Below, piece by piece: positions 1 to 22,929 of a DNA stretch of 24,470 nucleotides. The notes under the pieces were generated by a model. The model was not told where the DNA came from, did not search any database, and saw only the letters and a list, made by a program, of their open reading frames with translations. Source of the stretch: a virus (Duplodnaviria > Heunggongvirae > Uroviricota > Caudoviricetes); the IMG/VR virus record IMGVR_UViG_2909272501_000001; one strand, 5' to 3'. The translations under genes and the position numbers were made by a program. The number at the start of each line of letters is the position of its first letter. The first letter of the stretch is position 1.

Positions 1-411
1 ATGCCTGCCCCCGTCGTCCTGATCCTTGCGGCCGGGCGTGGAGAGCGCTTTCTCGCCTCCGGGGGAAATACCCATAAGTGTATCGGCTGGCGTCAGTCCC
101 CGGAGGTTGCGCCTTATCGCTGGCCATTTGAAGAAAACGGGAGAACTTTCGACCTTGCGATTGAACCGCAGATTACGACTAATGATCTGCGTCTGATGTT
201 GAGGCTGGCTCTTGCCGGCGGAGGAATAACAATTGCCACTCAGGAAACTTTCAGGCCATATATTGAAAGCGGTAAGCTTGTATCGCTGCTTGATGACTTT
301 CTTCCACAATTTCCGGGCTTCTATCTGTATTTCCCACAGCGTCGCAATATTGCACCAAAGCTCCGCGCCCTGATTGACTACGTCAAAGAATGGCGGCAGC
401 AATTGGTTTAA
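1..411 (+). CDS. LysR-family transcriptional regulator, C-terminal (effector-binding) part; 5' end lies outside the window
   Basis: ORF runs from the window edge to a stop at 411. The C-terminal residues ...GKLVSLLDDFLPQFPGFYLYFPQRRNIAPKLRALIDYV... fit the characteristic LysR-type C-terminal pattern. GC-rich, chromosome-like composition. Confidence 0.55.
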   Translation: MPAPVVLILAAGRGERFLASGGNTHKCIGWRQSPEVAPYRWPFEENGRTFDLAIEPQITTNDLRLMLRLALAGGGITIATQETFRPYIESGKLVSLLDDFLPQFPGFYLYFPQRRNIAPKLRALIDYVKEWRQQLV

Positions 412-4569: not shown

Positions 4570-5161
4570 GGGACACCCCCATCACCGGCAGACGGGCAGC
4601 AAGGGAGAGCACATAGTCACGGACAAGGGAACGGCGGGCACTGCGTTCATCACCGGCGACGGTGCGAAGCATGCAGATACGGGGATGACGGTCTGCGCGA
4701 CGGACAGCCGCAAACACAAAGACAAATTCAGGGTGTGAAGGGGTAAGGGTCGTAGCCATAAGGCAACCTCCGATAACAGCATAAATGACGCTATCGCCGG
4801 AGTTTCCACGCTCGATGGCGATAGCCCAGACGGGGGTGGAAATACCGGCGTTATCGGAAACCGGCCAGCCCGGAGGCTGCCCCGCCTGAGCTACCATTGA
4901 CTCTGCGGTATAATGAGCGGACGCGGGCAGAATGCACGGAGTGCCATTTGCTCGACTGACCACACACCACACCATAATCTGGCGCTCTGTGGCGTTGATT
5001 GCGACACAAAAAAAGACGCATGGCGCGTCATATGTCGCCGATAACATACTCGGGTTTCCACGCCCGGCTGCCGATTTTGCGGCAGCGGAAAAACTATATC
5101 CGCAAATGCCGGAAAAAGGCAAGCCAGAAAAAGGGAGTTTTTGCAGAGCGGGCATCATCAT
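4562..5161 (-). CDS. Uncertain ORF (199 aa from the internal Met; 214 aa on the track) covering the position where P4 carries its kil/eta/cI immunity region
   Basis: Open frame whose stop overlaps the next gene's start, but the translation is low-complexity and several other frames are also open in this GC-rich stretch. May be a misread of small genes and/or an RNA locus. Confidence 0.2.
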
Positions 5162-7280: not shown

Positions 7281-7853
7281 ATGGAAAGCACAGCCTTACA
7301 GCAGGCCTTTGACACCTGTCAGAATAACAAAGCAGCATGGCTGCAACGCAAAAATGAGCTGGCAGCGGCCAAACAGGAATATCTGCGGCTTCTGTCAGGA
7401 GAAGGCAGAAACGTCAGCCGCCTGGACGAATTACGCAATATTATCGAAGTCAGAAAATGGCAGGTGAATCAGGCCGCCGGTCGTTATATTCGTTCGCATG
7501 AAGCCGTTCAGCACATCAGCATCCGCGACCGGCTGAATGATTTTATGCAGCAGCACGGCACAGCACTGGCGGCGGCACTGGCACCGGAGCTGATGGGCTA
7601 CAGTGAGCTGACGGCCATTGCCCGAAACTGTGCCATACAGCGTGCCACAGATGCCCTGCGTGAAGCCCTTCTGTCCTGGCTTGCGAAGGGGGAAAAAATT
7701 AATTATTCCGCACAGGATAGCGACATTTTAACGACCATCGGATTCAGGCCTGACGCGGCTTCGGTGGATGACAGCCGTGAAAAATTCACCCCTGCGCAGA
7801 ACATGATTTTTTCGCGTAAAAGTGCGCAACTGGCATCACGTCAGTCTGTGTAA
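7281..7853 (+). CDS. psu: Psu, polarity suppression / capsid decoration protein
   Basis: 190 aa, N-terminus MESTALQQAFDTCQNNKAAWLQRKNELAAA..., last gene of the sid-delta-psu operon. Confidence 0.85.
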   Translation: MESTALQQAFDTCQNNKAAWLQRKNELAAAKQEYLRLLSGEGRNVSRLDELRNIIEVRKWQVNQAAGRYIRSHEAVQHISIRDRLNDFMQQHGTALAAALAPELMGYSELTAIARNCAIQRATDALREALLSWLAKGEKINYSAQDSDILTTIGFRPDAASVDDSREKFTPAQNMIFSRKSAQLASRQSV

Positions 7854-7888
7854 AATTCCCCGAAAATCCGCCCGTTTTTACTGAAAAA

Positions 7889-7972
7889 AGCCATGCATCG
7901 ATAAGGTGCATGGCTTTGCATGCGTTTCCCTGCCTCATTTTCTGCAGACCGCGCCATTCCCGGCGCGGTCTG
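7889..7972 (+). other. Two strong hairpins after psu (7889-7915, 9-bp stem; 7945-7972, 11-bp perfect stem); possible terminator and/or packaging-region structure
   Basis: AGCCATGCA...TGCATGGCT and CAGACCGCGCC...GGCGCGGTCTG inverted repeats. Only the first is followed by a weak T-rich tract. Confidence 0.3.
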
Positions 7973-8017
7973 AGCGTGTCAGTGCAACTGCATTAAAACC
8001 GCCCCGCAAAGCGGGCG

Positions 8018-8036
8018 GGCGTGGCGGGGGGAGCAT
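8018..8036. other. cos-like site (candidate cohesive-end sequence)
   Basis: GGCGTGGCGGGGGGAGCAT matches 15 of 19 positions of the P2/P4 cohesive end as I recall it (GGCGAGGCGGGGAAAGCAC). It sits right after psu, where cos lies in P4, next to a GC-rich imperfect palindrome (7999-8019). Confidence 0.35.
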
Positions 8037-8118
8037 TGCGCGCTAAGGCTGATATTATAATTTTCTTTAATTCTATTTGGTATTTTGGCTTTATTCGTCA
8101 GAAGGAACGTTTAGAAAT

Positions 8119-8146
8119 AGACCACTACAATGGATTGTAGCGGTCT
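8119..8146 (-). terminator. Hairpin terminator candidate ending the int-RT-partner operon
   Basis: 12-bp inverted repeat AGACCACTACAA/TTGTAGCGGTCT (one G-U-compatible mismatch), 4-nt loop, ~10 nt downstream of the partner gene stop, followed by a modest T-rich tract on the minus strand. Confidence 0.4.
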
Positions 8147-8155
8147 GCATGATAT

Positions 8156-8896
8156 CTAGCGTTGCATTTCAGTTACTATGAAATTTTCTTCTGTAATAGA
8201 ATTCATTATCTCAAAGTACAATTCTTCAGGTTGAATAAACGCCAACTCTTTGCAAAGGTTGACAATGGTATCACTATAAGTGATACCCATCCGAGGATTG
8301 AAAAGCTCAAATCTCTTGATGTTTCTTTTGTTTTTTGAGTAAAAGTTTAAAGTGAAATATATTAGCACCTGTCTAAGATCGTAAACACTAAACTTCCTAT
8401 CTCCTGATTTTATTTCCACAAGAACATTTGAATAATAAATATCGCCATATGAATTATTTATTACTCCGCATCCATCGAATTGTGGAGACACTTCAATTTG
8501 GTTTTCCATTCCATATCGAGACAAAATGTTTCTTGCTATTTCCCTTATGGCATTGTACTCAACCATGCTTAAGGGTAGCTTGAAGTTAGAACCGTAAGCG
8601 AACCGCTGTAGATATTCTTTTGTTTTTTCAAAAACAACCTGAAAATCAGCATTATGGAAGATATCATGTGCTGAAAGAATATTTCTGTCTAACGAATCAT
8701 TCTGTATTGCCCTATATAAATTAAATGCGCACTCATTAACAAAGACGTTATTTGACCTATTAGCGCAGTCATCTAGAGGAGGATAAACGTCCTCGATGAG
8801 ACTGCCGTTAATGATGCGTATGAAATTATTAGCATTTGGAAGCAATTGATTCCAAAATGAAGTGAATTTTCGAGAAAACGTTAATTCAGATATCAT
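8156..8896 (-). CDS. Hypothetical 246-aa protein, partner of the reverse transcriptase; possible nuclease-like effector
   Basis: ATG overlaps the RT stop (ATGA at 8893-8896), with RBS GAGGA inside the RT 3' end. Very AT-rich. Segment GDIYYSNVLVEIKSG could be a D...ExK (PD-(D/E)xK-like) core, but this is unverified. Confidence 0.75.
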   Translation of the reverse strand: MISELTFSRKFTSFWNQLLPNANNFIRIINGSLIEDVYPPLDDCANRSNNVFVNECAFNLYRAIQNDSLDRNILSAHDIFHNADFQVVFEKTKEYLQRFAYGSNFKLPLSMVEYNAIREIARNILSRYGMENQIEVSPQFDGCGVINNSYGDIYYSNVLVEIKSGDRKFSVYDLRQVLIYFTLNFYSKNKRNIKRFELFNPRMGITYSDTIVNLCKELAFIQPEELYFEIMNSITEENFIVTEMQR

Positions 8897-10521
8897 AGCG
8901 CATCCTCAAGATTTCTTGCGGTATGCCTTTTACTTGCCCAATCCCTGTAAATCACCTCTACAAAGTTGAATGTTTTCTTATTATGCTCTCTCCAGTGCCG
9001 TCCTTCATCACCTAAGATGTAACTGGAAACGATCAATAGTCTTCTCTGCAACGGATGCATTGCAGAGAAATTTTTTTTGATATCAGAAAGCCATGCGTAA
9101 GAATTAATTTTTGCCATTGACTGTGTAACTATGTTCTTGACTAAGATGCTTTCTGGATTGTTATTGTATATTTCACTAAGGATTAGGGTGGATTTTTCTG
9201 AATTTTCTTTTGAGAGCATTCGGGCTACATAGGCTAAGTTGAGCTCAGTACTCAAAATATATGAATCTTGTTTAATTAGTGCAGTTATTTTATCAAGAAT
9301 AATATCTTTGGTTTCTGTGCTTAATTTTTGCCAGTTGGAGTTAGCTACTTGAATTATAGTTGTAAATATTGGATATAACTCATGCAAGTTATTAAACATT
9401 ACTTTGAAAGCACTACTTATTATTTCATCTGATGTTGCTGAGAATGCCTTTATCAAATGCTTGCTAAAAGATTGGTTAATTTTTGATTTTTGTAACTCAC
9501 TACTCAGCATAGCTAACAAGTCAAAATCTTTTAAAGATTCCTTTATCTCTTCATATTCCTCTATCGCATTTGCTGAGTAAGGATCGAATCTTATAGGAAG
9601 ACTCATAAATTTAGCCTTCATAGGAGATTCTTCATCTTCATCATTACCATGCAACTTAGCTTTAGTTACTGAAAGGAACTCTTCTTTAGTAACAATATTG
9701 GTTTTTTGTTTCTGTAAAGTTAGCCCTTCATTTTCCATCAGTTTTTTACTAAGCAAAGTTAAAATCTTATGAGCATCCTCTCTAGAGTTACAAAAAATAA
9801 CAAAGTCGTCGACATAACGCTTATAGTTGATTCTATTCATAGACAATAATTTATCAATAGAATCTAGAGCTAGTTCTGCTAATATTCTAGAGGCAGGACA
9901 TCCAACTGGTACTCCATATGATTTTGTTTCACTAAATGTCTGTAGTAATTTCTTGATTTTCCCAGAGTAATCTTTATTGGGGTCGACTCTATCTAACGCA
10001 TTTTCTAAACGGTGGTGATAAATACGCGGATAGAAATCTGCTATATCGCATGTAAGTACATACTTTATTTCATCGTTAGAACATTCAGAGATACTGTCTT
10101 CTTGATATTTTCTCCAAGAGATCTCTTTATCAAAAAGAGAACCATCAGCAAGGTTTGGTTTAAAGCGATATGAATAAACCTGCGTTTTAGTAGATCTATT
10201 CCTTTCAATATCATCAGCGATTTTTAAAACTAACCCAAGAAAAAAAGCATTCCAGAATGGATCAATTTGGGTCGCCCACCTGTAACCATAATAACCAATA
10301 CTTGAAAAGCTATTAATTATGTTTGGTGGAATCTCGATCCTTTTATTTTCAAAGTCATTAAATGTTTGCATTAATGCAGTTTTTACTTTCTCCTTATCAT
10401 CTTCAAATAACCGACTTTCAAATGGGTAAGGGAAAATATCTGTATCGCCGTGCTTTATAATATTTTCCAATGCAAGCTCAAAGCAATTTTCTAGTTTACT
10501 ACTATCAAACTCGTTACTCAT
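8893..10521 (-). CDS. Reverse transcriptase, 542 aa, with ~230-aa alpha-helical C-terminal extension; UG/Abi-like defence-associated RT candidate
   Basis: RT motifs in canonical order: LTCDIADFYPRIYHHRL (motif A-like), SYGVPVGCPASRILAELAL (motif B'-like), KRYVDDFVIF (YVDD catalytic motif C), NEGLTLQKQKTNIV (motif D/E-like). RBS AAGGAGA; start overlaps the int stop by 8 nt. No retron-type VTG motif seen. Confidence 0.85.
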   Translation of the reverse strand: MSNEFDSSKLENCFELALENIIKHGDTDIFPYPFESRLFEDDKEKVKTALMQTFNDFENKRIEIPPNIINSFSSIGYYGYRWATQIDPFWNAFFLGLVLKIADDIERNRSTKTQVYSYRFKPNLADGSLFDKEISWRKYQEDSISECSNDEIKYVLTCDIADFYPRIYHHRLENALDRVDPNKDYSGKIKKLLQTFSETKSYGVPVGCPASRILAELALDSIDKLLSMNRINYKRYVDDFVIFCNSREDAHKILTLLSKKLMENEGLTLQKQKTNIVTKEEFLSVTKAKLHGNDEDEESPMKAKFMSLPIRFDPYSANAIEEYEEIKESLKDFDLLAMLSSELQKSKINQSFSKHLIKAFSATSDEIISSAFKVMFNNLHELYPIFTTIIQVANSNWQKLSTETKDIILDKITALIKQDSYILSTELNLAYVARMLSKENSEKSTLILSEIYNNNPESILVKNIVTQSMAKINSYAWLSDIKKNFSAMHPLQRRLLIVSSYILGDEGRHWREHNKKTFNFVEVIYRDWASKRHTARNLEDAL

Positions 10522-11698
10522 TCACATTCTCCTTAATAAAAATATAATCTGAATACCACTGCATCATATCACGGCGTTTATCAATATATTGAGCATGATT
10601 ATACGTACCTCTAATATTATTCTTATCTATATGAGCAAGCTGTATTTCTATCCAAGCCGAATCATATCCTTTTTCGTGGAGGATAGTAGATAAGGAATGT
10701 CGAAATCCATGACCAGTAAGTTTTCCACCATAACCAATACGCTTGATAACTTGGTTAATACTCGCCTCACTCATAGGCTTGTTCGGATCGTTCCGCCCCG
10801 GAAAAACATAACTATACTTCCCTGTCATCATCTTGAGTTCATTTAGCAAATCTAACGCTTGAGTCGACAAAGGCACAAGGTGTGATCTGCGCATTTTCAT
10901 CCTTTCAGCAGGAATTTCCCAAATAGCGTTATCTAAATCAAATTCTGACCATAATGCCGCACGTAATTCGATGGTTCTAACACCTGTAATCATGAGCAAT
11001 TTCGTGGCAATCAGGACAAGCCGACTTCCGGTATATCCGTTTAAGGCGCGAAGAAAATCAGGTATCTCATTAGCCTTTAAGAACGGGAAATGATTTGATT
11101 GGTGTACATTGAGGGCGCTTGAAAGATCCGCAGCAGGGTTAAACTCAGCCCTTCCAGTAGCAATGGCATAGCGGAAAACTTCTGAGCATCGCTGCCGAAC
11201 TTTGCGCATTTTTTCTAATGCACCGCGCTTTTCGATTTTACGCAGCACATTAAGCAGTTCTAGCGGTTTAATCTCTCCCACTGGCCTTGTTCCCACATAA
11301 GGAAAAATGTCGTTCTTAAACGCTTCCATGATGTCTGATGCATATCCCGCCGACCATTTGGTAGACTTCTGTTGATGCCACTCTCTGGCTATCTTTTCGA
11401 AGGCGTTCTCTGACTCTGTTTGCAGAGCCAGCTTTTGCTCTTTTCGAACCTCACTAGGGTTCTTTCCTTCTGCCACAAGTTTTCGAGCTTCATCACGACG
11501 GGAACGAGCATCAGCAAGAGTGATCGTTGGGTAAACACCAAGCGAGATCATTTTGGGTTTACCGGCATAGCGATAACGAAATCGCCAGCTTTTACTTCCA
11601 TTTGGCTCTACAAGTAAAGACAACCCTTGCCCATCCCCAAGTGTATAGGCTTTAGCTTCAGGTTTAGCACGGCGAATCTGCATATCATTTAGGGGCAT
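10514..11698 (-). CDS. int: P4-type (DUF4102-family) tyrosine integrase
   Basis: 394 aa. N-terminal ...RRAKPEAKAYTLGDGQGLSLLVEPNGSKSWRFRYRYAGKPKMISLGVYP... is characteristic of P4/CP4-57-type integrases. Catalytic R...HxxR...H...Y residues (GVRTIEL, GHGFRHSLS, LAHIDKN..RGTYNHAQY). Confidence 0.88.
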   Translation of the reverse strand: MPLNDMQIRRAKPEAKAYTLGDGQGLSLLVEPNGSKSWRFRYRYAGKPKMISLGVYPTITLADARSRRDEARKLVAEGKNPSEVRKEQKLALQTESENAFEKIAREWHQQKSTKWSAGYASDIMEAFKNDIFPYVGTRPVGEIKPLELLNVLRKIEKRGALEKMRKVRQRCSEVFRYAIATGRAEFNPAADLSSALNVHQSNHFPFLKANEIPDFLRALNGYTGSRLVLIATKLLMITGVRTIELRAALWSEFDLDNAIWEIPAERMKMRRSHLVPLSTQALDLLNELKMMTGKYSYVFPGRNDPNKPMSEASINQVIKRIGYGGKLTGHGFRHSLSTILHEKGYDSAWIEIQLAHIDKNNIRGTYNHAQYIDKRRDMMQWYSDYIFIKENVNE

Positions 11699-11881: not shown

Positions 11882-12023
11882 AAAACACTCGATTAATCTC
11901 GTGTTAATGCCATCACCTACGACCATTACTAATTGATTGAATCTGATAGAAAAATTATCATTTTCTATACCTTACAATCAATTTACACATTACAAACGCT
12001 CCGACACTTTAGCCGGAGATTTT

Positions 12024-13301
12024 ATGAGATACAAGCCTAACCAATACTTAATCTGTGATTCTTACGGTAACTACTATTTAAGGATCACGCTGCCTGTGTA
12101 TATGCAGCCCTTTTTTGAAGGAAAAAGGACGTTTGTCAGAAGTCTACACACAAGTAATCTTCGTGTGGCACGTCGAAAGCGTGATCAGATTGCAGATGAA
12201 TACCATTGCTTACGGGAGAGTGTTGCCCCTGTAAACAGCACAATAGAAAACACGCTGGAACTGTTACGCAGTAAGGCTAAATACGCCAAAACAGCTACCA
12301 GAATGCAAGATACAGCGTCTTCGTGTCCGTCATTGCTTAAAATTCTTGAAATCTACCTGACAATTAACAGCACGAAGAAGAAGCCAGCCACTTTAGCTAA
12401 GGCAAGAAAAGCGGTAGAGATGTTTCTCTCCTACCGTAAAAAGCCTGATATTGCATTGCAAGATGTAAGCCGCACCACTGTTACAGGCTGGATTGAACAC
12501 ATGCAAAAAACCCTTTCACAACAATCAATTGCAAATTATATCAGCCCAATGGTCCAGCTATGGGAGTTAGCTTCATCACGTTACCACGATGCGCCAGAAA
12601 GGGCGCTCTCCCCCTGGCGAGGGCATAGGCTTGATGTGGCACAAAGTAGAGAGAGCTACGAGGCATTTTCTAACAAAGAGCTATTGCAGGTGTTGCAAGT
12701 ATTTTCCGGTGATTCAGCAGAAAACAAAGAAATGACGGCTTTGTGTCTTATCGGTTTATATACAGGTATGCGGATCAATGAGATAGCAAGTATCACAATA
12801 GACGATGTGAAAGAGATCGAAGGTGTGCTGTGTTTTGAAATCACACAGGGAAAAACGAAAGCTGCGGCACGTCTTGTGCCTGTGCATAACCTTATCACTC
12901 CGTTGGTGTTGTCGCTGCGTGAAAAGCCTCACAATGGCTTTTTGTTCTATCACGCCAGCATTACAGAACGTGCTGACGGTAAACGCTCTACGTGGCATAC
13001 ACAACGATTTACAAGAGCTAAACGAAAGGCTTTAGGGGAAAAGGGAACAGAAAGGAAAGTGTTTCATTCTCTGAGACACGGAGTAGCACAGCTTCTTGAT
13101 CGAAATCAAATTCCAGAAGACAGGATCGCCCTTCTCCTGGGCCATACACGCGGCAATACAGAAACATTCCGCACATATAGCAAGAATGCAGCTTCTCCAG
13201 TAGAGCTTAAAAAATATATTGAGCTTTTACGCTACCCTGAAATAGAGAAAGGCTTATCAATCAATAAAAAATCAAATTTAAGGCGTAAAACAACGCCATA
13301 G
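12024..13301 (+). CDS. Second tyrosine recombinase/integrase (425 aa from the ATG at 12024; track ORF begins at a TTG at 11937)
   Basis: Catalytic signature GMRINEI (R), FHSLRHGVAQ (HxxR), LLGHT (H), TYSKN (Y). RBS GGAG 5 nt before the ATG. AT-rich. Confidence 0.75.
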   Translation: MRYKPNQYLICDSYGNYYLRITLPVYMQPFFEGKRTFVRSLHTSNLRVARRKRDQIADEYHCLRESVAPVNSTIENTLELLRSKAKYAKTATRMQDTASSCPSLLKILEIYLTINSTKKKPATLAKARKAVEMFLSYRKKPDIALQDVSRTTVTGWIEHMQKTLSQQSIANYISPMVQLWELASSRYHDAPERALSPWRGHRLDVAQSRESYEAFSNKELLQVLQVFSGDSAENKEMTALCLIGLYTGMRINEIASITIDDVKEIEGVLCFEITQGKTKAAARLVPVHNLITPLVLSLREKPHNGFLFYHASITERADGKRSTWHTQRFTRAKRKALGEKGTERKVFHSLRHGVAQLLDRNQIPEDRIALLLGHTRGNTETFRTYSKNAASPVELKKYIELLRYPEIEKGLSINKKSNLRRKTTP

Positions 13302-13381
13302 ACGTAATAAAGAGGCTTCAATATAGATTGATGCCTCTTTTATGATTATCTCGTTACAGAGCGTTTCATAGGCGTTTAAGG

Positions 13382-14059
13382 CTATTGTTTAAATACTGGC
13401 GTTACAACGTCTTGCCCTGGGCTTTTTTGATTTTTCTGTTCTGTTGTATTTACCTGCATTTTAACCTGTCCCCCTACAGATTTATTTGGTGCTGTTTTTA
13501 CAGCAATAGCATTAGTGGTGGCCTTAGAGACAAGACGAATTTGCTCAAAATCAAGAGTAAACAATAAGCTTTCGCTTGCTTCTTCTTCGTAAGACATGCC
13601 AACTAACACAACGTTGTCATAATTTTTTAACTCAGTGACAAGTAGGAAAGGTTGGCGACTGTCCATCAACTGATTTAGGTATTCAAGCATAAGCATACGT
13701 CGATTGCCGTTAATTCCCGCATTCTTAATCATATCGGGATTGAGTTTCAATACGGTTTCAGAGATACGCCCCTGTAATGTGAACTTGTTATTCCGTATTT
13801 GAACATGATCACTAACTTCTGATCCTGATTCGACGGCATAGCTTGTAACGTCTGCATTTCGGCTAACTTTCGTCGATTCCACGTTATCAAATGATAATGC
13901 CCGGTAGTCATTGTAAGCAGCATTTGCACCACTGCCGAGGTTAGAGGTAATAATCGCAAAGCCGTTACCCCCTTTAGTTGTTCTACCGTTGCTATCGTTG
14001 CTTGTGCTGTTGATTTTCGCCTCAGTCGGGCGACCAATGGTTAACGGACCCATTGCCAT
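13382..14059 (-). CDS. Hypothetical protein, 225 aa (possible virion-associated protein)
   Basis: ORF with RBS AAGGA; last gene of a co-oriented leftward block that includes capsid-like candidates. No recognisable motif. Confidence 0.45.
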   Translation of the reverse strand: MAMGPLTIGRPTEAKINSTSNDSNGRTTKGGNGFAIITSNLGSGANAAYNDYRALSFDNVESTKVSRNADVTSYAVESGSEVSDHVQIRNNKFTLQGRISETVLKLNPDMIKNAGINGNRRMLMLEYLNQLMDSRQPFLLVTELKNYDNVVLVGMSYEEEASESLLFTLDFEQIRLVSKATTNAIAVKTAPNKSVGGQVKMQVNTTEQKNQKSPGQDVVTPVFKQ

Positions 14060-14106
14060 AATTTGTAATCCTTATTTAAGGGGGCTAAACAGCCCCACAG
14101 TGATGA

Positions 14107-15948
14107 TTAATAGGTTGACCCGCCTGACATAACACCCAGCGTTAATAGCTTGCTAAACTCAGCGGAGGATGCCTTTGATTTGAAGTCGATAAATTCGCTC
14201 AATCGTCCGGTGTCTGATTCGATAGTTAGCGGCACTTCTGCATTTACTTGTAATTCTGGATTGAAGTTAATAACAGGTGCAAAGGTGTAAGAAGGAGTCT
14301 TGATAGCTTGTTGTGCTGCACTCTGTTTCAGATTTGCAATGTTTTGTCCTTCGAGAGTGTATTGATTTACAGCCTGCGCCCCGCCTACCGTTTCTTCTGG
14401 CGTAAACCAGCCTTTAATAGTGTTAAACAGGGAATTGCTGTTATCTGGCTTAGTTGTTCCGGTGCCAGCGCCTTTATATTGATCAGGAACGAGATTAGAA
14501 AGATTCTGTTTCATCCCTTCGTTAGACAGTGGCGGTGCATCACCTAAATTCTTCTGAATAGCTTCCGTCTTCTCGTCGTTTTTCATCAGCCAGTTGATTG
14601 CTTTCATTACGGCGTTAACCAATCCGCCGATAGCCTCGCCTAATTTGGTAAACATTGGCAGCATTGCAACCATACTCTTTTTGAACTCTTCAATCACAGC
14701 AGGATCGAGAGATTTCATAAAGCCATCAACAAAGGCGATCCCTTGTGAGTCAGAAAGCCCACTAAGTGCATTATTCAGTTCACGGAATTTAATAACGCTT
14801 TCCTGTTGTGCCTGTGTTACCCAGCGCCCTGATTCTCGTTGTTCTCGTGCTGATTGTTCCACTTCTTTAGCGGAGCGTGTCCAGTATTTAGAGGTGAGCA
14901 TCAAATCATCAGCCAGATCTTCCAGACGACTACCGATTTGTGCATCTGAATAGCCTTTAGCTACCATTCCCTGAACTGCTTTACTAACCAGACCAGCCGG
15001 ATTATCAGCAAAGTCTTTTAGATCCTTTTTAGTTAGGAATCCTTCATTCATTAAAGTATTGATGCCGCTATCGCCGCCCTTCCATTCTCCTTTACCAGTT
15101 TTCTTATCAACTACATATTCAGCTTCATCATAAGATTTGGTTGCACGTTCACGCACATCTTTCATCTGATCCAGATACTTACGTTTACCTTGTTCGCCCA
15201 TCATTGAATCAACGCCGTTTTTATACGCCCATTGTTCAACATCGTTCATCTGGTTAACGTCTACACCGCCCAGCTTCGCACGGCTATACAATTCACCCAG
15301 CGTTTCAGCATTCGCAAAGCTGTTAGTAACAAATTCAGAGGCTTTGCTCATAGCCATATACGTAGCGCCAGCGCCTAAGCCACCCAGCATAACAGCCGCA
15401 GCACCGCCGCCAATACTCCCGCTACCCTTAACAGGTGCATAGGCTTTAGCGTGAGCGTTACGATTGCCATTAATCTTACGTTGTTGCTGTTGTAGGCGTT
15501 TCATTTGGCTATTCATACGTGCCAGACTAATAGCGCCTCTTTCATATTGGAGGGCAATTTCTCTAGCCTGTGCAATAGCTTTATATTGTTCCGCTACAGA
15601 AAGACGGTGCATTGCACTAATGCTTGATCCAACGTCTAAAAGCTTTAATTCTGCCTTCTCTTTGCGTGCTGCCAGGGCTTTTTGTTCTCTTGCAACTACA
15701 CGTTGAGCGGCTAATTGTGCTTTAGCATTGGCTTTATCTGCCTGTGCTTGCTTTTTAGCAATATCGTCTACGTCTTTTTTTGCTTTAGCGGTTGATTGTT
15801 TATGTGTCTTAACACGCAATTCTATATCTTTCACCGCCGCCATTTGTTTACGAAGTTTTTCTACTTCTGCTTTTGCTTTCTCTAATGATGGTCGATCAAC
15901 CTGGAAGGTGACAACGTTTGATAAGCGGCTGACGTTAAGTTCTAACAT
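14107..15948 (-). CDS. Large coiled-coil / Gly-rich protein, 613 aa; tape-measure-like or other minor virion structural protein candidate
   Basis: N-terminal ~170 aa is Lys/Ala/Gln-rich with heptad-like periodicity, followed by a Gly-rich hydrophobic segment (GSIGGGAAAVMLGGLGAGATYMAM) and then a globular region. RBS AGGGA. Confidence 0.55.
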   Translation of the reverse strand: MLELNVSRLSNVVTFQVDRPSLEKAKAEVEKLRKQMAAVKDIELRVKTHKQSTAKAKKDVDDIAKKQAQADKANAKAQLAAQRVVAREQKALAARKEKAELKLLDVGSSISAMHRLSVAEQYKAIAQAREIALQYERGAISLARMNSQMKRLQQQQRKINGNRNAHAKAYAPVKGSGSIGGGAAAVMLGGLGAGATYMAMSKASEFVTNSFANAETLGELYSRAKLGGVDVNQMNDVEQWAYKNGVDSMMGEQGKRKYLDQMKDVRERATKSYDEAEYVVDKKTGKGEWKGGDSGINTLMNEGFLTKKDLKDFADNPAGLVSKAVQGMVAKGYSDAQIGSRLEDLADDLMLTSKYWTRSAKEVEQSAREQRESGRWVTQAQQESVIKFRELNNALSGLSDSQGIAFVDGFMKSLDPAVIEEFKKSMVAMLPMFTKLGEAIGGLVNAVMKAINWLMKNDEKTEAIQKNLGDAPPLSNEGMKQNLSNLVPDQYKGAGTGTTKPDNSNSLFNTIKGWFTPEETVGGAQAVNQYTLEGQNIANLKQSAAQQAIKTPSYTFAPVINFNPELQVNAEVPLTIESDTGRLSEFIDFKSKASSAEFSKLLTLGVMSGGSTY

Positions 15949-15982
15949 GCTAATTGTTTCCCTGTATTATGATTGTTGTTTA

Positions 15983-16180
15983 TTATTGTTTTTTAGAGCA
16001 ATAGTATTGAATTGCTTCGAAAGTGCTGCATCCAGTCTGAAAGACACGCTGACGCACATTATTTGCATCAATTTCTAAAAGGCGGCAAAGCGCCGATGTG
16101 TTTATAACTGATTCCTCGCTAATAGCTGCCAGTTCTTTTACAGATTTAAGAATTAATGCCTGTGAATTTTCTGCGTTCAT
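15983..16180 (-). CDS. Small hypothetical protein, 65 aa
   Basis: ORF between the 343-aa and 613-aa genes; no motif recognised. Confidence 0.3.
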   Translation of the reverse strand: MNAENSQALILKSVKELAAISEESVINTSALCRLLEIDANNVRQRVFQTGCSTFEAIQYYCSKKQ

Positions 16181-16335
16181 TGGTTTTCTCTCACATATAT
16201 ATTTTTATTTGGGTTTGTAGACAGTAGAAAAAAAATAAGGGCAAGAGACAGCGCATATTTTGCTTATATGATTATCCCTTACCCTTATTGCCCCGATTAT
16301 TTCCAGACGATGGGGAATCGTCTATTAACGCTTTA

Positions 16336-17367
16336 TTACGCAGCAGATCCGAAGATGATAGCTTGCGGAATGTTGTTTACTGGCAGATAAGATGTCTCAG
16401 TAACCACAGATGGGAATTGGAATTCATCCTTGATTAGATATTGGTGATGTAACACGGCATCTTGACCTAACTCAGCATGACGCACACCAACGCCGCTATG
16501 AAGCTGATAGCACTGTGCCGCTTTATCCATTACTGGAACAATTGCGAAACCGTTCTCTCCGATGTGAGCAACAATCTCAGGAAACATTGACACATCAATA
16601 ACAGTGATCCCACCAATCTGGAAAGAGTCATAGGCTGGGTTAGAATCAACCATACGGGTAAACAGGGCCGTAGCACTCGCATCACCTGCATATTTCACCA
16701 TGTCACTGATCAGCGGGTTAGATGACAAACCATCAGCAGCAGCGCCAGCAGCAAAGATAATTACACCAGTTCGCTTTGCAGCAAGACCAGACCCCAGCTT
16801 TTCACTCTGTAAGCGCACCGCTTTACGAATAGCAAGGAACGGGTTAACAGTAGTCGATGCAAAGTCGATAGCGGGTACCGTGGTTTTAGCCTGACCGTCG
16901 AGGAAGTCGAGATCACCTTGTCCGGCATATTCAGATTCAACTTTCAGGCCCAGCAGCGCGGTAATCAGATCCACTTCAACACGGTTTGCGTGTGAACGGT
17001 AATGTGCCTCAGAGAAATCATTAACCGCTACCAGCATAGCATCAGAACGGTTTGGATATTGGCGGCTGTATTGTTCCAGGTCACGAGAAGTAACAGCGTT
17101 AATACTGCCGACGTGTTTCATCTGGAAAAGTTTGTTTGACCATTCCTGACGTTTAGAGGCGTTCCAGTCGCTTTGAGCGTAAGGCGAGGTTTCCCCAGCT
17201 ACCTGCACAAACTGATCAATCAGGTCGGTAAGAAGAATGCTGTTTTCTGTATGATATTGCACATCGAACAGATCGAGATTAGTAATCAGGGTATTAAGTG
17301 CATTCTCATAAGCAAATGGAGTTACTACCGCAGTATTAACGCCAAAATATGTTGATAAATCATTCAT
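16336..17367 (-). CDS. Hypothetical protein, 343 aa; major-capsid-like candidate (speculative)
   Basis: Size and position directly after a ~125-aa decoration-like gene resemble the lambda D/E arrangement. No direct sequence similarity to lambda gpE that I can confirm by eye. Confidence 0.5.
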   Translation of the reverse strand: MNDLSTYFGVNTAVVTPFAYENALNTLITNLDLFDVQYHTENSILLTDLIDQFVQVAGETSPYAQSDWNASKRQEWSNKLFQMKHVGSINAVTSRDLEQYSRQYPNRSDAMLVAVNDFSEAHYRSHANRVEVDLITALLGLKVESEYAGQGDLDFLDGQAKTTVPAIDFASTTVNPFLAIRKAVRLQSEKLGSGLAAKRTGVIIFAAGAAADGLSSNPLISDMVKYAGDASATALFTRMVDSNPAYDSFQIGGITVIDVSMFPEIVAHIGENGFAIVPVMDKAAQCYQLHSGVGVRHAELGQDAVLHHQYLIKDEFQFPSVVTETSYLPVNNIPQAIIFGSAA

Positions 17368-17381
17368 TATTATTTTCCTTG

Positions 17382-17765
17382 TTAAGTCGTAGGGATCGCA
17401 AGTTCTTCATAACCAGCAATTACAAAGCCGAGAGATTGCAGTTTTGCAATAACACTTGCCTTTTCCATACTGTTAAATTCAATCCCATCTTCAGCCAGAA
17501 TAACGAAAGTAGGATGTGCAACCACTACGCTTTCCTGTCCTTCATAAGCCGGTTCAACCACTACGTGAGCAATATCAGAAGCGGTTGTTGCTTTGGTGCC
17601 ATCGGCTTTCAGCAAAGCCCCGACAATAAGATCGTCAGTGAGAGGTGAAGCCAGTTTGACGAGGCGATCTTGCAGCACTGGATCAGCAGCGTAAGCTACT
17701 ACCTTACAGCGTGAACGGGAATTATCCGCATTCACTGCTTTTAATTTTCCATATGGGTTAGCCAT
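17382..17765 (-). CDS. Hypothetical protein, 127 aa; head-decoration-like candidate (speculative)
   Basis: Small Ala/Val-rich beta-type protein starting MANPYGKLKAVNADN..., immediately upstream of the 343-aa gene. Confidence 0.45.
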   Translation of the reverse strand: MANPYGKLKAVNADNSRSRCKVVAYAADPVLQDRLVKLASPLTDDLIVGALLKADGTKATTASDIAHVVVEPAYEGQESVVVAHPTFVILAEDGIEFNSMEKASVIAKLQSLGFVIAGYEELAIPTT

Positions 17766-17769
17766 AAGA

Positions 17770-17967
17770 TTATTTTCCTTTCAGTTGTTTAATTTTAGAT
17801 TTAAGGGCATCAGCAAGACTAACCGCATCAGCCGATTTAAATAATTGAGCAGTGGTAGAACGAAGACTTTCGGGAGTAACTCCCAACAGTGCGGCAACCT
17901 TAATGAGGTTTTCATCACTAACAATCATCGTTTCCCCGTCTTTGCTGATAATCATTTCTTGTTTCAT
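17770..17967 (-). CDS. Small hypothetical protein (65 aa from the ATG with RBS AGGAAC; track ORF extends to 18009)
   Basis: ORF with plausible RBS; first gene of the leftward structural-like block. Confidence 0.3.
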   Translation of the reverse strand: MKQEMIISKDGETMIVSDENLIKVAALLGVTPESLRSTTAQLFKSADAVSLADALKSKIKQLKGK

Positions 17968-18948
17968 AAATAACGTTCCTGTTAGTGCCAGACAAATAAA
18001 AAGCCCCAATGCCGTAAGAGGTTCTGACCAGCAAAGGGGCTTTAACGTGCGGGCAATTACATAATTGATAAGTTAAACTATAAGAGGATTAAACATATCA
18101 GCAAATACACTTTTTAAATATACTTGATGATATGCTTAAAGGGTGAATAGATACTCCTGAAAACATGCTCTTAAGAAAACATGCGGAATCAATCAGGAAT
18201 ATCTATTCGGGGCGCGGTGGCTAACCGCTATCTTTCATGGTGTGGATGCACCAGTCAGATTTTAAGGAATCACTATTCCAATCTACTCACAGATTAAATT
18301 TTTAATAAGGATTAACTACACCAACAGTAATCTACCGTTTCAGAAAATCGTTTCACAACCAAAGATTATAGATCCGCATTCTATAAAACCCGTTTTGCTA
18401 TCAATATTTCCAAAGTTTATTGCACCATTCTTAGCTAAACTCTCTCTACTTGCGGCTAACGCTATGCAGATGATAGTTTTTTGACAACAACTTAATAGAT
18501 TATTCTGTTACTAACTTCCGTCATTAAATAAGAGTTTAATGATGTTAGTAAATAGTTATAAAATATAACTATCAGTGTAAGGCTCTTTAATGTTTTCGGA
18601 CAAAATAAGGAGCTTTAGGATAAGCATAGATGAAAAATAAGAGCGGGAAGGGCAAGGAGATAACACCTACCCGCTTTTATCAAAAATTAAGCACAATGCC
18701 TAACAACATTCATCAACACAACGTAGAAACAATCAACAATCAAAGAGGGAGTTATGATTATTCTAAAACTTCTTGATAGATGGAAGGTAATATTTGTTAG
18801 AGGTTAATGCCACTCAACCTTTGAGGCTATCACCTTCCATATGCAGGGATTTATGACAGTAGAAGGATTAACACCAACTAAAATCTTTTAATCTACCCCT
18901 AAAATTATTATATAACAAAATCATCATAAATGCAAATGATTTTCATTA

Positions 18949-19251
18949 TCATTTAGAGAAAATAGCACTTTTTGCTAAATCATTTACTAATTGCTGAATC
19001 TCTTCACTTGCAGCCTTTAACGTGCTGGCGGTGTCTGTGATGGTTTGAGTGCACATCTTGGCATCTGATAGCTCTAAATCGCTCACCAGAGAGACAAAAT
19101 CTTCTAAGCATACATTGAGCTTCATTAAGCTAATAACGCATTGAGAGAGCGTATAATCGCATAAATCTGAATAGGCTTGATTTATTCTTGTTTGTAGTGA
19201 GATAGTCAGATCTAAAAGTTGTTCCATTGCATTGCTAATATCTTCTTCCAT
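18949..19251 (-). CDS. Hypothetical acidic helical protein, 100 aa
   Basis: ORF; start ATG overlaps the stop of the upstream 81-aa gene. Confidence 0.4.
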   Translation of the reverse strand: MEEDISNAMEQLLDLTISLQTRINQAYSDLCDYTLSQCVISLMKLNVCLEDFVSLVSDLELSDAKMCTQTITDTASTLKAASEEIQQLVNDLAKSAIFSK

Positions 19252-19496
19252 TATGCGTATTCTCCTTGTAATGCATCATTAATCATATTCAATACGATGT
19301 TAAAAGGTGTCTTGAGCGTCAGCACTTCATCACGGTAACGTTCTAATGCTTCGTAGTCTTCTGTTTCTTTTGCCAGCCGGATTAACTCAGCATAGTTTTT
19401 TGCATCAGACAGGAGCATCTGAAATAATTGTGTTTCTTGAATATAGCCAATCATTATTTTTCCTTTTTCGAATATTTTCATTGGGCGCTTATACAT
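19251..19496 (-). CDS. Hypothetical protein, 81 aa
   Basis: ORF in the co-oriented operon downstream of the rep-like gene. Confidence 0.4.
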   Translation of the reverse strand: MYKRPMKIFEKGKIMIGYIQETQLFQMLLSDAKNYAELIRLAKETEDYEALERYRDEVLTLKTPFNIVLNMINDALQGEYA

Positions 19497-19511
19497 ACGC
19501 CCGTCTTTCTA

Positions 19512-19892
19512 TTAGTTAGAACGTTTGTTAGATGCGAGAGTGTCGATCAGGTGCTGCATCAGATCTGTTTCTGTAACGCCGCCTACCTGATTGTTGAACG
19601 AATTGAAGCCTGTATAGTGACGAAATGAGGTAAAGCCTAACAATTGCCATTTCTTCAATGTGCCAGGTTCTATAATCGTTGTCTTTCTTGTTCTGGGTTT
19701 GAAATACACACCATCACCCATTGATTGAATAATTTCTAATTCTTCGTTTGTAAGTGGTGGGCTGTTAGATTCTAAAATGAAGACTATCTCTTCACCTGCT
19801 TCTTCATTATTCTTATAAACTTGCTTTCTTACGTCGTTGAAGGTGTTCCCTTGCTCAATACGTTTTAAGTTGTTCTTTTTCTTTCTTCCCAT
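19512..19892 (-). CDS. Hypothetical protein, 126 aa, basic N-terminus
   Basis: ORF with RBS GAGGGA; N-terminal MGRKKKNNLKR. Confidence 0.45.
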   Translation of the reverse strand: MGRKKKNNLKRIEQGNTFNDVRKQVYKNNEEAGEEIVFILESNSPPLTNEELEIIQSMGDGVYFKPRTRKTTIIEPGTLKKWQLLGFTSFRHYTGFNSFNNQVGGVTETDLMQHLIDTLASNKRSN

Positions 19893-20026
19893 TTTCCCTC
19901 TTTTTATGTGGATTATAAAAACTGAATGCCATAGTTACGATGAATATTGCTACAAATGCACTTGCCATATGTATTGCCCGATCTGTTGTTACTGATTGTT
20001 TGTGATGTTATAAATCATTTATTTCC

Positions 20027-20596
20027 TTAAAAGGGTAGTGAATCATATATTGTGCTCTCACTTTTGAGATCAATTATCAAAGAGTCAAAATCATTTTCAC
20101 AAAGATAGATATTCTTTGAATCTAATGCTCGTTTTACAAAATCTTCTGTTTCTTCGTGCGGTGGTTTCTTCTTATCAAGGGAAAGAAGCCAAGTAAAAAT
20201 TTCGGGCCGCTCAGGGAACTCTGGCTCTTGTGTTTCTTCTTCAACGATGATTTCGGAAACATTCAATATTTCATTAGATTCGTCTTCTTTCTCAGAAGGA
20301 TCAGGTAGTGATGATTCTCCTTTTGGAATATCAAGCACTCGATAAAGGTTAGAGCTTCCTGGTCGTGCATCTTTTATAATTAATCCCATTTCGAGCAATT
20401 TCTTAACCCTTTCTTCTGCTGCTCTTGGTGTTATGCCAAAAACATCGCCTATCTTAGCGTAAGAGGGAAATGCACGATCAAACCCTCTCAGATAGCAGTA
20501 AAGGTTTTTAGCACTATCTGTAAATTTATGCCCGTTTACTTGGCTTATTTTTAGAATCCACATAGGAACTTTTACAAATTGTTCTTCATTAATCAT
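20027..20596 (-). CDS. Winged-helix DNA-binding protein, 189 aa from the ATG at 20596; replication initiator / replisome-organiser-like candidate
   Basis: RBS AAGGAGA 5 nt before the ATG. Segment NLYCYLRGFDRAFPSYAKIGDVFGITPRAAEERVKKLLEMGLIIK resembles wHTH initiator N-domains. Acidic C-terminal half. Same operon as an RHH protein and downstream of the iteron cluster. Confidence 0.5.
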   Translation of the reverse strand: MINEEQFVKVPMWILKISQVNGHKFTDSAKNLYCYLRGFDRAFPSYAKIGDVFGITPRAAEERVKKLLEMGLIIKDARPGSSNLYRVLDIPKGESSLPDPSEKEDESNEILNVSEIIVEEETQEPEFPERPEIFTWLLSLDKKKPPHEETEDFVKRALDSKNIYLCENDFDSLIIDLKSESTIYDSLPF

Positions 20597-20649
20597 TAAA
20601 AATCTCCTTGATGTAATCACGCTCTACGGCGCTACTATGGTGATAAAAA

Positions 20650-20820
20650 TCACTTGCTTTTGTTTGAGAGTGTTTCAGCCTCTCTTTTCAACATATCAAG
20701 AATGTAATCTGTAACAGTGATACGTTTACTTCTGGCTTCTTTAAACAACACCTGAAATACTTCATCAGGAATATGAAAGCAAGTGCGTGGTTGCCTTTTC
20801 TTTTCTGTAGTTTCGCTCAT
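20650..20820 (-). CDS. Ribbon-helix-helix (CopG/Arc-like) DNA-binding protein, 56 aa from the internal ATG
   Basis: Strong RBS AAGGAGA before the ATG at 20820. Sequence KRQPRTCFHIPDEVFQVLFKEARSKRITVTDYILDMLK fits the RHH beta-strand-helix-helix pattern. Confidence 0.55.
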   Translation of the reverse strand: MSETTEKKRQPRTCFHIPDEVFQVLFKEARSKRITVTDYILDMLKREAETLSNKSK

Positions 20821-20839
20821 AGTTTTCTCCTTCTCTTCT

Positions 20840-21040
20840 TTACTCTGTTTCAGATTCTTTTTCAGATCCTTTTTCATTTTTTCTTAATTCATCAATAATT
20901 TTTAGTGCATCGTCAAAGCATTTTTCACGCTCTGGATAACCACAGCGTCGCGCTGTGTTCCTGTTCATCCTTACTTTAAAACGGTTGATCTCACCACGTT
21001 TCCAGGCTTCCACAATATCCTGTGGAGTGAAATATTTCAT
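20840..21040 (-). CDS. Hypothetical small protein, 66 aa
   Basis: Strong RBS AGGAGG before the ATG at 21040; first gene of the leftward operon below the iteron region. Confidence 0.45.
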   Translation of the reverse strand: MKYFTPQDIVEAWKRGEINRFKVRMNRNTARRCGYPEREKCFDDALKIIDELRKNEKGSEKESETE

Positions 21041-21883
21041 TAATTAACCTCCTATTCTATTTAGTTAAAAGAAATAGACACCTTGCAAGCCTTGGGCTTC
21101 AAAGTGCGATGCATTGGTTTAATTATTTAAAGGATAAGAATGTTTTCCTGCCCCTAATATTACTTTACCACGACTAAAGGCTTTTGTCAACCCCCCAGCC
21201 ATAAAAATATTGATCATTTTCAGTGTGTTATGATTTTTCTTAGCAATTCGTGCTCTTACGAATACTCCAATTCTTCATTATTGTCTAAAACGCTCTAAAA
21301 CGCGTTCTAACGAGGTTTTGATAAAAACAATACATTCCCTTATGTAATGGCTGTTTAGCTCGCCTACGGTTTGATTTAAGCGGTAGAAACTCATCTACTA
21401 CCTAACATCTTTAAACCATATTTTTCTTTTTTGTCTGTTTGATGGTTGATCTATAGTTATGCGTTAGCATCCCCAAAGGGGTAACGCTACCCTAATTGCA
21501 TTCGCAAGAACATTGCACAAGAAATTTATTTTAGATGATTGATGATCGTTAGATGGTAGTTAGTTAATTATCGTTCTGCGCACAGCGCAAGACTATTTAG
21601 CCTTACGCAAGCCGTAGGCTATTTGCACATAGTAGATTACATATTCGTTGTGAGCGGAAAGCGAACATAGATCTACTAACTAACATTAACAAACAAAAAC
21701 TATGTGTTATGAGAAGTATCAGTCTAACTGACTAACACTCTAACTTGTGCAAGGTTCTGGCGAATGCCAATAGATTAAGGGATAGTCGAAGACTCCCTAA
21801 CGGGTATCCCTATAATTATTCTTTAAAGATAAAAGAATTTATAAAAGATAATTTAATTGTAGTTTGATAGTTGATCTAATAGG

Positions 21884-22854: not shown

Positions 22855-22929
22855 ATGTATTTAGATGTATTTATAGCTATTTATGGCTATTTATTTTTTA
22901 TTTACCTTTATTTGAAAACAACCTTATAA
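22855..22929 (+). CDS. Candidate 24-aa hydrophobic peptide MYLDVFIAIYGYLFFIYLYLKTTL
   Basis: ATG 5 nt after a strong SD (AAGGGAGGGG). Very short, so a coding call is tentative. Confidence 0.25.
   Translation: MYLDVFIAIYGYLFFIYLYLKTTL

Follow-up and report, generated by a model that had tools for sequence, protein, structure and literature searches.

Positions 8156-10521 of the 24,470-nucleotide stretch of DNA analysed here (hereafter the window) almost certainly encode, judging by profile matches to both of their proteins, a canonical DRT type 8 (UG7) anti-phage system, in which a reverse transcriptase (RT) gene is followed on the minus strand by the gene for a PD-(D/E)XK nuclease. The 542-aa Drt8/UG7 RT-like polymerase (8893..10521, minus strand; WP_000064054.1) matches the PADLOC Drt8 model with an E-value of 4.9e-166 and 552 bits, over residues 11-532 and profile positions 4-492 of 493, the next-best PADLOC RT model being UG21 (1e-37, 128 bits). 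Its 246-aa partner (8156..8896, minus strand) matches the PADLOC RTasPDDEXK model (E 5.5e-69) over profile positions 1-224 of 226. UG7 variant 1, made up of an RT and a PD-(D/E)XK "cluster 17" gene, was named DRT type 8 by Mestre et al. (2022, NAR, PMC9226505), who reported that a UG7 system with a PD-(D/E)XK gene robustly blocks T5 in E. coli K-12, and that active-site mutants of either the RT or the PD-(D/E)XK protein lose defence (PMC9226505). Defence against T5 is the only robust phenotype reported for a UG7 system.

A known cargo of P4-like satellites

The first-pass annotation of this DNA had described a P4-like satellite with an RT module of two genes in its psu/cos-int hotspot, and this description is borne out by the genes and signals around it. 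Pfam recognizes the P4 core genes alpha primase-helicase, DUF5375, Ash/Icd-like, delta (Ogr_Delta), psu, and int, while Rfam recognizes the P4 CI/C4 antisense RNA at 4814-4901. The left flank of the hotspot is psu (7281..7853, plus strand; Pfam Psu, E 3.9e-88), and its right flank is the tyrosine integrase gene int (10514..11698, minus strand; Pfam Arm-DNA-bind_3, Phage_int_M, and Phage_integrase). A P4-type cos-like site (8018..8043, plus strand), recognized at 8018-8036 by comparison with the P4 cos given in Table S2A of PMC9122126, lies at the end of the satellite-core homology; homology to a Citrobacter relative (L004) picks up again at 8043. The variable cargo extends from about 8044 to 10536, between cos and int, and has a GC content of 32-37%, versus 50-62% in the satellite core. 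The module is carried by a P4-like satellite as exchangeable cargo, with psu/cos on one side and int on the other.

The same pair of proteins has already been catalogued at this location. RefSeq has a locus with 100% identity to the window at which the RT and its partner bear the accessions WP_000064054.1 and WP_000622599; both accessions are found in Table S1A of Rousset et al. (2022, Cell Host Microbe, PMC9122126). In Table S1B of the same study, the pair appears under the E. coli P4 psu-int hotspot as System #2, counted 294 times and accompanied by the remark "UG7; protein 2 weak homology to nucleases"; the partner printed there matches that of the window exactly from end to end, and the RT matches exactly as far as it is printed. 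We found no difference between System #2 and the window module, as both the proteins and the psu/cos-int location are the same. The PADLOC Drt8 profile and the Table S1B annotation together assign the RT to the UG7 clade. Among the cargos of E. coli P4-like satellites, System #2 ranks second in frequency; it was catalogued by Rousset et al. without a phage assay, and their phage panel did not include T5 (PMC9122126). The presence of UG7 in P2/P4 variable regions had already been remarked as well (PMC9226505). Among 5,426 complete E. coli genomes, 105 carry the module, and the window holds the common E. coli allele of this P4 cargo. A literature search returned no experiment on this exact allele.

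Compared with DRT type 8 as published (PMC9226505), the likeness covers both full-length profiles, the gene order, a Class 1 alphaRep RT, both active sites, and the P4 variable region, and no difference was detected. The view that the module is an anti-phage system agrees with the DRT8 family match and with the T5 defence reported for a UG7 system (PMC9226505). The first-pass annotation had also held the RT-plus-partner architecture to be unmatched and uncharacterised, and had proposed a profile-HMM search in which a match of both genes to a characterised system of the same architecture would remove the novelty. Both genes match the characterised DRT8 in this way (PADLOC; PMC9226505; System #2 of PMC9122126), and the claim of novelty therefore falls: the module is already known, its type having been named and validated since 2022, and its allele is catalogued among the commonest E. 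coli P4-like cargos. The general databases do leave room for an RT and partner without known counterpart, since the partner is assigned to no Pfam or NCBIfam family, the RT stays below the cut-off of every NCBIfam DRT model, and RefSeq labels the partner "hypothetical protein". Set against the full-length PADLOC DRT8 matches, the published UG7 validation (PMC9226505), and the listing of the pair in PMC9122126, this reading is scarcely tenable.

The reverse transcriptase and its candidate priming tyrosine

The RT comprises an N-terminal region, in which the GDTDIFP motif (aa 25-31) is invariant, a fingers/palm core at about aa 60-290, a flexible linker (292-317), and a C-terminal alphaRep domain (319-542). 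Pfam RVT_1 matches it with 68 bits (cut-off 29.6), and the full set of catalytic motifs that had been noticed at first reading is indeed in place, namely DIADFY (aa 159-164), GVPVG (203-207), SRILAEL (211-217), YVDD (236-239), and GLTL (266-269). The catalytic Asp159 of motif A (codon 10045..10047, minus strand) is invariant in alignments of 24 and of 79 family members, and it aligns with the motif-A Asp of DRT4 in a profile alignment. Motif C, the YVDD stretch (9805..9816, minus strand), provides the catalytic D238 and D239. D159, D238, and D239 are conserved in at least 97% of the 79 aligned sequences, and the RT catalytic site is intact. Position 236 is less constrained, with Y in just 51% of the 79 sequences and F in the others.

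In the AF2 model of the RT (pLDDT 84), residues 319-541 of the alphaRep domain are all helical, mostly with a pLDDT of 84-95, in agreement with the initial description of a UG/Abi-class RT with a helical C-terminal extension. The top Foldseek matches of this model are 9vdv/9vdo (DRT4), 9l9s (UG15), 9wy8 (DRT6), 7r08 (Abi-P2), 8oz7 (AbiA), and 7r06 (AbiK), and E-values range from 6e-12 to 1e-8 for DRT4, DRT6, AbiK, Abi-P2, and AbiA over the full length of the RT; DRT9 ranks 34th in the list, with a TM of 0.35. According to the model, the RT is of the Class 1 UG/Abi type, i.e., an RT core without thumb joined to alphaRep. It has in common with DRT4 (UG15), DRT6, AbiK, Abi-P2, and AbiA the RT palm and fingers with alphaRep, the lack of a thumb, a single-polypeptide polymerase, and a location in defence loci, but RT identity to these enzymes is just 13-20%. 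Furthermore, these systems consist of one gene each (HEPN being fused in AbiA), whereas DRT8 includes a nuclease that is separate and obligatory.

Other RT families give matches of their own, and these were examined as identities for the RT. The group II intron RT/maturase model TIGR04416 scores 78 bits (cut-off 300) over aa 145-298 alone, the NCBIfam retron St85 RT model 56.5 bits (cut-off 235), and the PADLOC AbiP2 model 82 bits, versus 552 for Drt8. The idea that the RT is a retron, a group II intron RT/maturase, or Abi-P2 draws on these weak matches, which cover just the RT palm (aa 145-300), and its probability is practically nil. In addition, Rfam finds neither msr/msd nor intron RNA nor any other RNA family over the module, and the RT has no VTG or NAxxH motif and no upstream space, its start overlapping int; the statement made at the outset that this is not a retron thus stands. 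DRT2-5, DGR, and CRISPR-RT were also rejected, with scores far under the cut-offs or far under that of Drt8, missing motifs, and no Rfam RNAs.

A short stretch of the linker deserves attention in relation to priming. The D-P-Y-S sequence at aa 313-316 (9574..9585, minus strand) places Tyr315 in the predicted RT-alphaRep linker, in a loop (residues 309-317) where the AF2 pLDDT falls below 50; one other such loop, at 292-298, is present in the model. All 79 aligned sequences share Tyr315, and DPYS is conserved in at least 97% of them. In Class 1 enzymes, priming tyrosines are found in flexible loops at differing positions: Y44 in AbiK, Y61 in Abi-P2, Y125 in DRT4, and Y298/Y303 in AbiA. Among these, AbiA alone has its priming tyrosine in a linker equivalent to that of Tyr315 (PMC12783706), while those of the others are elsewhere. 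The alignment between the RT and DRT4 profiles begins at motif A, leaving Tyr125 of DRT4 outside. Conservation and the predicted structure together make Tyr315 the best candidate for a protein-priming residue; the alternative candidate is Tyr118, which is also 100% conserved in the 79 sequences and lies in a structured region.

The boundaries of the cassette bear on whether an RNA could serve as template. At its 5' junction (10514..10536, minus strand), the Shine-Dalgarno (SD) sequence AAGGAG of the RT (10534-10529) is placed inside the last codons of int, the RT start codon ATG follows at 10521-10519, and the int stop codon TAA is at 10516-10514, so that int overlaps the RT start by 8 nt. Nucleotide homology to non-P4 relatives begins at 10536 for Brenneria (L003) and at 10533 for Citrobacter (L004); overall, the nucleotide homology that the module shares with diverged relatives extends no further than the ORF boundaries, 10536 and 8156, with just the SD in common upstream. 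A promoter search returned 16 matches versus 13.1 expected, about what chance would give, and upstream of the RT the minus strand had no convincing match. RT expression, and hence that of the module, may therefore depend on read-through from int. At the other end, 10 nt past the nuclease stop codon, a 12-bp hairpin with a tetraloop followed by AUUUCU (8119..8146, minus strand; RNA fold -18 kcal/mol, z = -4.4 versus shuffles) is probably the operon terminator; three relatives (L002-L004) each have a hairpin of their own at the same place downstream.

An RNA-templated RT, copying an unrecognised ncRNA or its own mRNA as in DRT2, DRT9, Drt3a, or retrons and yielding a cDNA that guides or activates the nuclease, would be compatible with the full set of RT catalytic motifs, and ncRNA-dependent DRTs do exist. 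However, the RT is of Class 1, fused to alphaRep, while the DRTs that use an ncRNA belong to Class 2, and structurally it lies nearest to DRT4, DRT6, and the Abi enzymes, with DRT9 only far down the list. No intergenic space is available upstream because the RT start overlaps int, and a search for a conserved flanking ncRNA by homology to relatives and with Rfam found none. A template could still sit within the coding sequence or elsewhere, beyond the reach of this analysis of the flanks, but with homology ending at the ORF boundaries and no Rfam family in the module, RNA templating appears quite improbable.

The partner nuclease and its coupling to the RT

The partner had been described as a protein without assignable motif, which turns out not to be the case: it carries the active site of a PD-(D/E)XK nuclease of the RecB/Cas4/MGME1-like kind. 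The active-site block, with D152, E161-I-K163, and Q176-x-x-x-Y180 (8357..8443, minus strand), has all of these residues conserved in at least 97% of 78 sequences, and the active site (D...ExK and QxxxY, in a RecB-like fold) is intact. Its nearest folds are the ssDNA exonucleases and end-processing enzymes MGME1, Dna2, Cas4, and ACE1, and identity to these and to the nuclease domains of RecB, AddB, and AdnAB is 7-13%. Unlike Cas4, Dna2, and AddB, the partner has no four-cysteine Fe-S cluster, C143 being the sole nearly invariant cysteine (alignment A1), and in contrast to RecB-like nucleases it has no helicase partner. Features of its own are an invariant M-I-S-E N-terminus and an FNPRxG motif.

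The RT stop codon and the nuclease start codon overlap by 4 nt in an ATGA sequence (8893..8896, minus strand), which, as far as the arrangement of the ORFs tells, is a translational coupling of the two genes, as had been claimed. Of 79 related loci, which come from many phyla, 73 have the same 4-nt ATGA overlap. The pair itself is kept in 79 of 80 related loci, and pairwise identities of the RT and of the partner are strongly correlated (r = 0.92). The one partnerless locus (L042) was considered as a possible case of an alternative effector and rejected, as an IS3-family transposase is inserted after the RT. The conserved ATGA coupling points to a stoichiometric complex between RT and nuclease. 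These features, i.e., the DPYS/Tyr315 loop, the QxxxY motif, and the ATGA coupling, were not found in the DRT8 literature consulted for comparison.

How the two proteins may act together

DRT8 is one of the few DRT types without a published mechanism or structure: our literature search on DRT8 and UG7 found neither, a sequence search of the PDB found no DRT8 chain, and a 2026 review describes the mechanism as "not yet established". All Class 1 enzymes that have been studied (AbiK, Abi-P2, AbiA, DRT4, and DRT7) are template-independent and self-primed on a tyrosine, with the DNA covalently attached, and DRT4/UG15, DRT6, Abi-P2, AbiA, and AbiK are protein-primed, template-independent ssDNA polymerases. 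By analogy, the DRT8 RT would need no RNA template and would prime on one of its own tyrosines, Tyr315 being the best candidate and Tyr118 the alternative, to polymerise untemplated ssDNA that stays covalently attached to the RT; this is an extrapolation from enzymes with just 13-20% identity to the RT. The nuclease, translated in fixed proportion from the mRNA of the RT, would probably be in complex with it. Once a phage infects, one of its factors or DNA intermediates would change what becomes of the RT-made ssDNA, and the nuclease, as the effector, would thereby be licensed to attack phage DNA, and possibly host DNA, at its ends or in single-stranded form, halting phage replication. In this scheme we infer protein priming, untemplated synthesis, complex formation, the substrate of the nuclease, and the trigger, and we give the chain as a whole, from protein-primed synthesis to a coupled nuclease effector, about an even chance of being correct.

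That the partner is the effector is argued for by the Cap17-type ATP nucleosidase that "replaces the usual nuclease effector" in some DRT8 systems. The nuclease could instead process the RT product, for instance trimming it or freeing it from the tyrosine used for priming; toxicity or inhibition would then come from the RT-made DNA itself, as has been suggested for DRT4, whose immunity has been ascribed to accumulated RT-made ssDNA. Such a role would fit the nearest folds of the partner, which are ssDNA exonucleases and end-processing enzymes, and the rigid 1:1 coupling of the genes suits a processing subunit as well as an effector; moreover, nearly half of UG7 members (165, by the count of PMC9226505) have no associated nuclease gene. 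An ATP nucleosidase, however, cannot process DNA, and its replacement of the nuclease in some DRT8 systems makes a processing role unlikely overall. The loss of defence in nuclease active-site mutants (PMC9226505) is predicted by both models.

Within the reading of the nuclease as effector, a more specific version is that RT and nuclease form an obligate complex in which the Tyr315-primed, tethered ssDNA, and not a protein-protein signal, gates or loads the nuclease upon perturbation by the phage. We hold this version to be possible but somewhat doubtful; if true, it would make DRT8 the first Class 1 DRT whose DNA product controls a dedicated enzymatic effector and is not toxic itself. More speculative, and with only a slim chance of being right, is a Cas4/ACE1-like nuclease that would cut RT-made or phage DNA into guide-like fragments.

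The window offers a compact (about 2.4 kb) and naturally abundant E. coli DRT8 allele for addressing these models. Its testable residues are D159, D238/D239, Y315, and Y118 in the RT, and D152, E161, K163, Q176, and Y180 in the nuclease, and the putative stoichiometric RT-nuclease complex would be suited to cryo-EM.

Identity of the reverse transcriptase and its partner

The two-gene module at 8156-10521 is indistinguishable from the described DRT type 8 (DRT8) family, and its allele is already present in a published catalogue: the system is already known. The first-pass annotation had correctly read it as a defence reverse transcriptase (RT) of the UG/Abi class, distinct from retrons. However, it had also taken the architecture for an uncharacterised one and the partner for a protein with no assignable motif, and neither view withstood the profile-HMM search that it proposed, since both genes matched DRT8 components. 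The RT (542 aa; 8893-10521, minus strand) and the partner (246 aa; 8156-8896, minus strand) are ORFs exactly as first described, and each of the expected motifs is present in the RT, namely DIADFY (aa 159), GVPVG (203), SRILAEL (211), YVDD (236), and GLTL (266), with a Pfam RVT_1 score of 68 bits for a cut-off of 29.6. Neither a VTG nor an NAxxH motif was found in this protein. It matches the PADLOC-DB Drt8 model over positions 4-492 of 493 (E 4.9e-166, versus 1e-37 for the next-best PADLOC RT model), while the partner, a predicted RecB-like QxxxY nuclease, matches RTasPDDEXK over positions 1-224 of 226 (E 5.5e-69). The partner has no matching model in Pfam or NCBIfam, and the RT scores below the cut-off of every NCBIfam DRT, retron, and intron model, which explains the RefSeq names "RNA-directed DNA polymerase" and "hypothetical protein". 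The module displays every defining feature of DRT type 8 open to in silico assessment.

This architecture corresponds to a reported phylogenetic variant of the Class 1 UG/Abi RT UG7 that goes with "cluster 17", a remote homologue of PD-(D/E)XK; the same study named it DRT type 8 and observed UG7 RTs within P2/P4 variable regions (Mestre et al., 2022; PMC9226505). In E. coli K-12, a UG7 system gives robust protection against T5, which is lost upon mutation of either the RT catalytic site or the PD-(D/E)XK active site (PMC9226505). A second study catalogued every psu-int locus across 20,125 E. coli genomes (Rousset et al., 2022; PMC9122126), and the pair "RVT_1 + hypothetical, WP_000064054 + WP_000622599" recurs many times in Table S1A and constitutes System #2 (n=294) in Table S1B. 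In the Table S1B representative, the entire partner sequence is identical to that of the window, as is the RT for the portion printed; RefSeq gives these two accessions to a locus 100% identical to window 7854-10600. The module sequence is absent from the tables of tested systems of that study. The full module is found in 105 of 5,426 complete E. coli genomes, chromosomal in every case. In strain EN-1077 (NZ_CP159209.1), an IS3-family element interrupts an otherwise identical module region.

Limits of the cassette and conservation of the gene pair

As noted in the first pass, the RT start codon (ATG, 10521-10519) lies within the last codons of int (10514-11698, minus strand), resulting in an 8-nt overlap with the int end; a Shine-Dalgarno sequence, AAGGAG, is found 7 nt upstream. 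An ATGA contains both the stop of the RT gene and the start of the partner gene. GC content is 32-37% across the module versus 50-62% in the satellite core. The module shares nucleotide homology with a Brenneria copy over 10536-8156 and with a P4-like element of Citrobacter, whose integrase differs (41% identity), over 10533-8176; in the latter, homology resumes from 8043 in the cos-psu region. These limits define the cassette as the two ORFs plus the Shine-Dalgarno sequence. Because homology to non-P4 copies begins at 10536-10533, int takes its final 5-7 codons and its stop from the cassette, its ORF running into cassette-derived sequence at 10514-10536. Together with the 8-nt overlap, this suggests that in this element read-through from int may be needed for expression of the module. 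In the Citrobacter element, int and the RT gene do not overlap. Downstream of the nuclease stop is a 12-bp hairpin (8119-8146, minus strand; -18 kcal/mol, z = -4.4); in relatives, other hairpins occupy this position. Comparison with relatives revealed no conservation of non-coding flanking sequence, and the Rfam search had no match within the module.

The nuclease gene directly follows that of the RT in 79 of 80 related loci, from Proteobacteria, Bacteroidota, Firmicutes, Verrucomicrobia, Planctomycetes, and an archaeal MAG; in the sole exception (L042, an alphaproteobacterial MAG), an IS3-family transposase is inserted in the nuclease position. A 4-nt (A/G/T)TGA overlap joins the two genes in 73 of the 79 loci. 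Pairwise identities of the two proteins are correlated (r = 0.92), with the nuclease evolving faster (mean identity of 30% versus 44% for the RT). Of note, the metagenomic protein P0180 (896 aa) consists of a DRT8-like RT (56% identity, 99% coverage) fused N-terminally to a Ser/Thr protein-kinase domain (Pfam Pkinase, E 9e-33). This is possibly a kinase-RT variant of the family, but it is present on two short contigs only and may be a gene-calling artefact.

RT structure and a putative mechanism

The AF2 model of the RT (pLDDT 84) comprises the RT core, low-confidence segments at 292-298 and 309-317, and an all-helical domain at 319-541 (alphaRep), consistent with the helical C-terminal extension proposed earlier. 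A sequence search of the PDB returned no DRT8 structure. In Foldseek searches against the PDB, DRT4/UG15, DRT6, Abi-P2, AbiA, and AbiK rank first (E 6e-12 to 1e-8); the Class 1 enzymes studied to date, AbiK, Abi-P2, AbiA, DRT4, and DRT7, are all protein-primed and template-independent. Group II intron RTs, retron RTs, and DRT9 come at lower ranks, and RNA-templated synthesis by the DRT8 RT is considered highly improbable. Like other Class 1 enzymes, this RT would rather be protein-primed and untemplated. In these Class 1 enzymes, the priming tyrosine is found in a flexible element located differently from family to family, the RT-alphaRep linker in the case of AbiA (PMC12783706). Three tyrosines are fully conserved among 79 RT sequences: Y118 (S-Y-R), Y164 (motif A), and Y315. 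The last belongs to D313-P314-Y315-S316, which is at least 97% conserved and falls in the predicted disordered linker joining the RT core to alphaRep. Tyr315 of this DPYS loop is the favoured candidate for the priming residue, with Tyr118 as a possible alternative. Beyond the RT core, complete or near-complete conservation across phyla is seen for G-D-T-D-I-F-P, close to the N-terminus (aa 25-31, window 10429-10449), and for D-E-G-x-H-W, within alphaRep (aa 505-510, window 8992-9009). In the partner, the N-terminal M-I-S-E is invariant, and an F-N-P-R-x-G motif is present.

The nuclease would be made in a fixed ratio to the RT and is probably bound to it. It is also the likely effector, as an ATP-nucleosidase "replaces the usual nuclease effector" in some DRT8 systems; that it would only process the RT product, the RT-made DNA itself being toxic, appears unlikely. 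Infection could then alter the state of RT-linked ssDNA and thereby license the nuclease against DNA ends or ssDNA of the phage or host. Taken as a whole, this chain from untemplated synthesis to infection-licensed attack has about an even chance of being correct, and a May 2026 review describes DRT8 as having a "dedicated mechanism not yet established". At the residue level, the candidate DPYS/Tyr315 primer, the RecB-like QxxxY nuclease, and the putative ATGA-coupled complex are hypotheses that add modestly to what is known and could inform mechanistic work.

The P4-like satellite and its surroundings

The location in a P4-like hotspot was confirmed by the presence of genes for the alpha primase-helicase, DUF5375, an Ash/Icd-like protein, delta, psu (E 4e-88), and int, of the P4 CI (C4) antisense RNA found by Rfam search (4814-4901), and of a cos-like site (8018-8036) differing from the P4 cos of Table S2A at 4 of 19 positions (PMC9122126). 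The immunity region is intact (4814-5099; C4 antisense RNA 77.9 bits, isrK 74.7, c4 a1b1 target 51.5) and adjoins the Ash/Icd-like ORF. The window contains no tRNA gene; the satellite has inserted downstream of paoCD, beside a truncated LysR-family gene (window 1-411). In strain ECCRA-119 (NZ_CP029242.1), the DNA past int is different and encodes DUF4062, an HTH protein, and another RT-domain protein (568 aa), so that this site gathers different islands in different strains.

Directly past the P4-like int, the region 11937-24470, without PADLOC matches, opens with a second, divergent tyrosine integrase (11937-13301, plus strand), which precedes an AT-rich, compact phage-like element. This element encodes a Dit-like tail protein, a tape-measure-like protein of 613 aa, a weak major-head-like protein, a replication-initiator-like protein, and several ORFs without family. 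The region resembles another small integrated element or satellite, arranged in tandem with the P4-like one.
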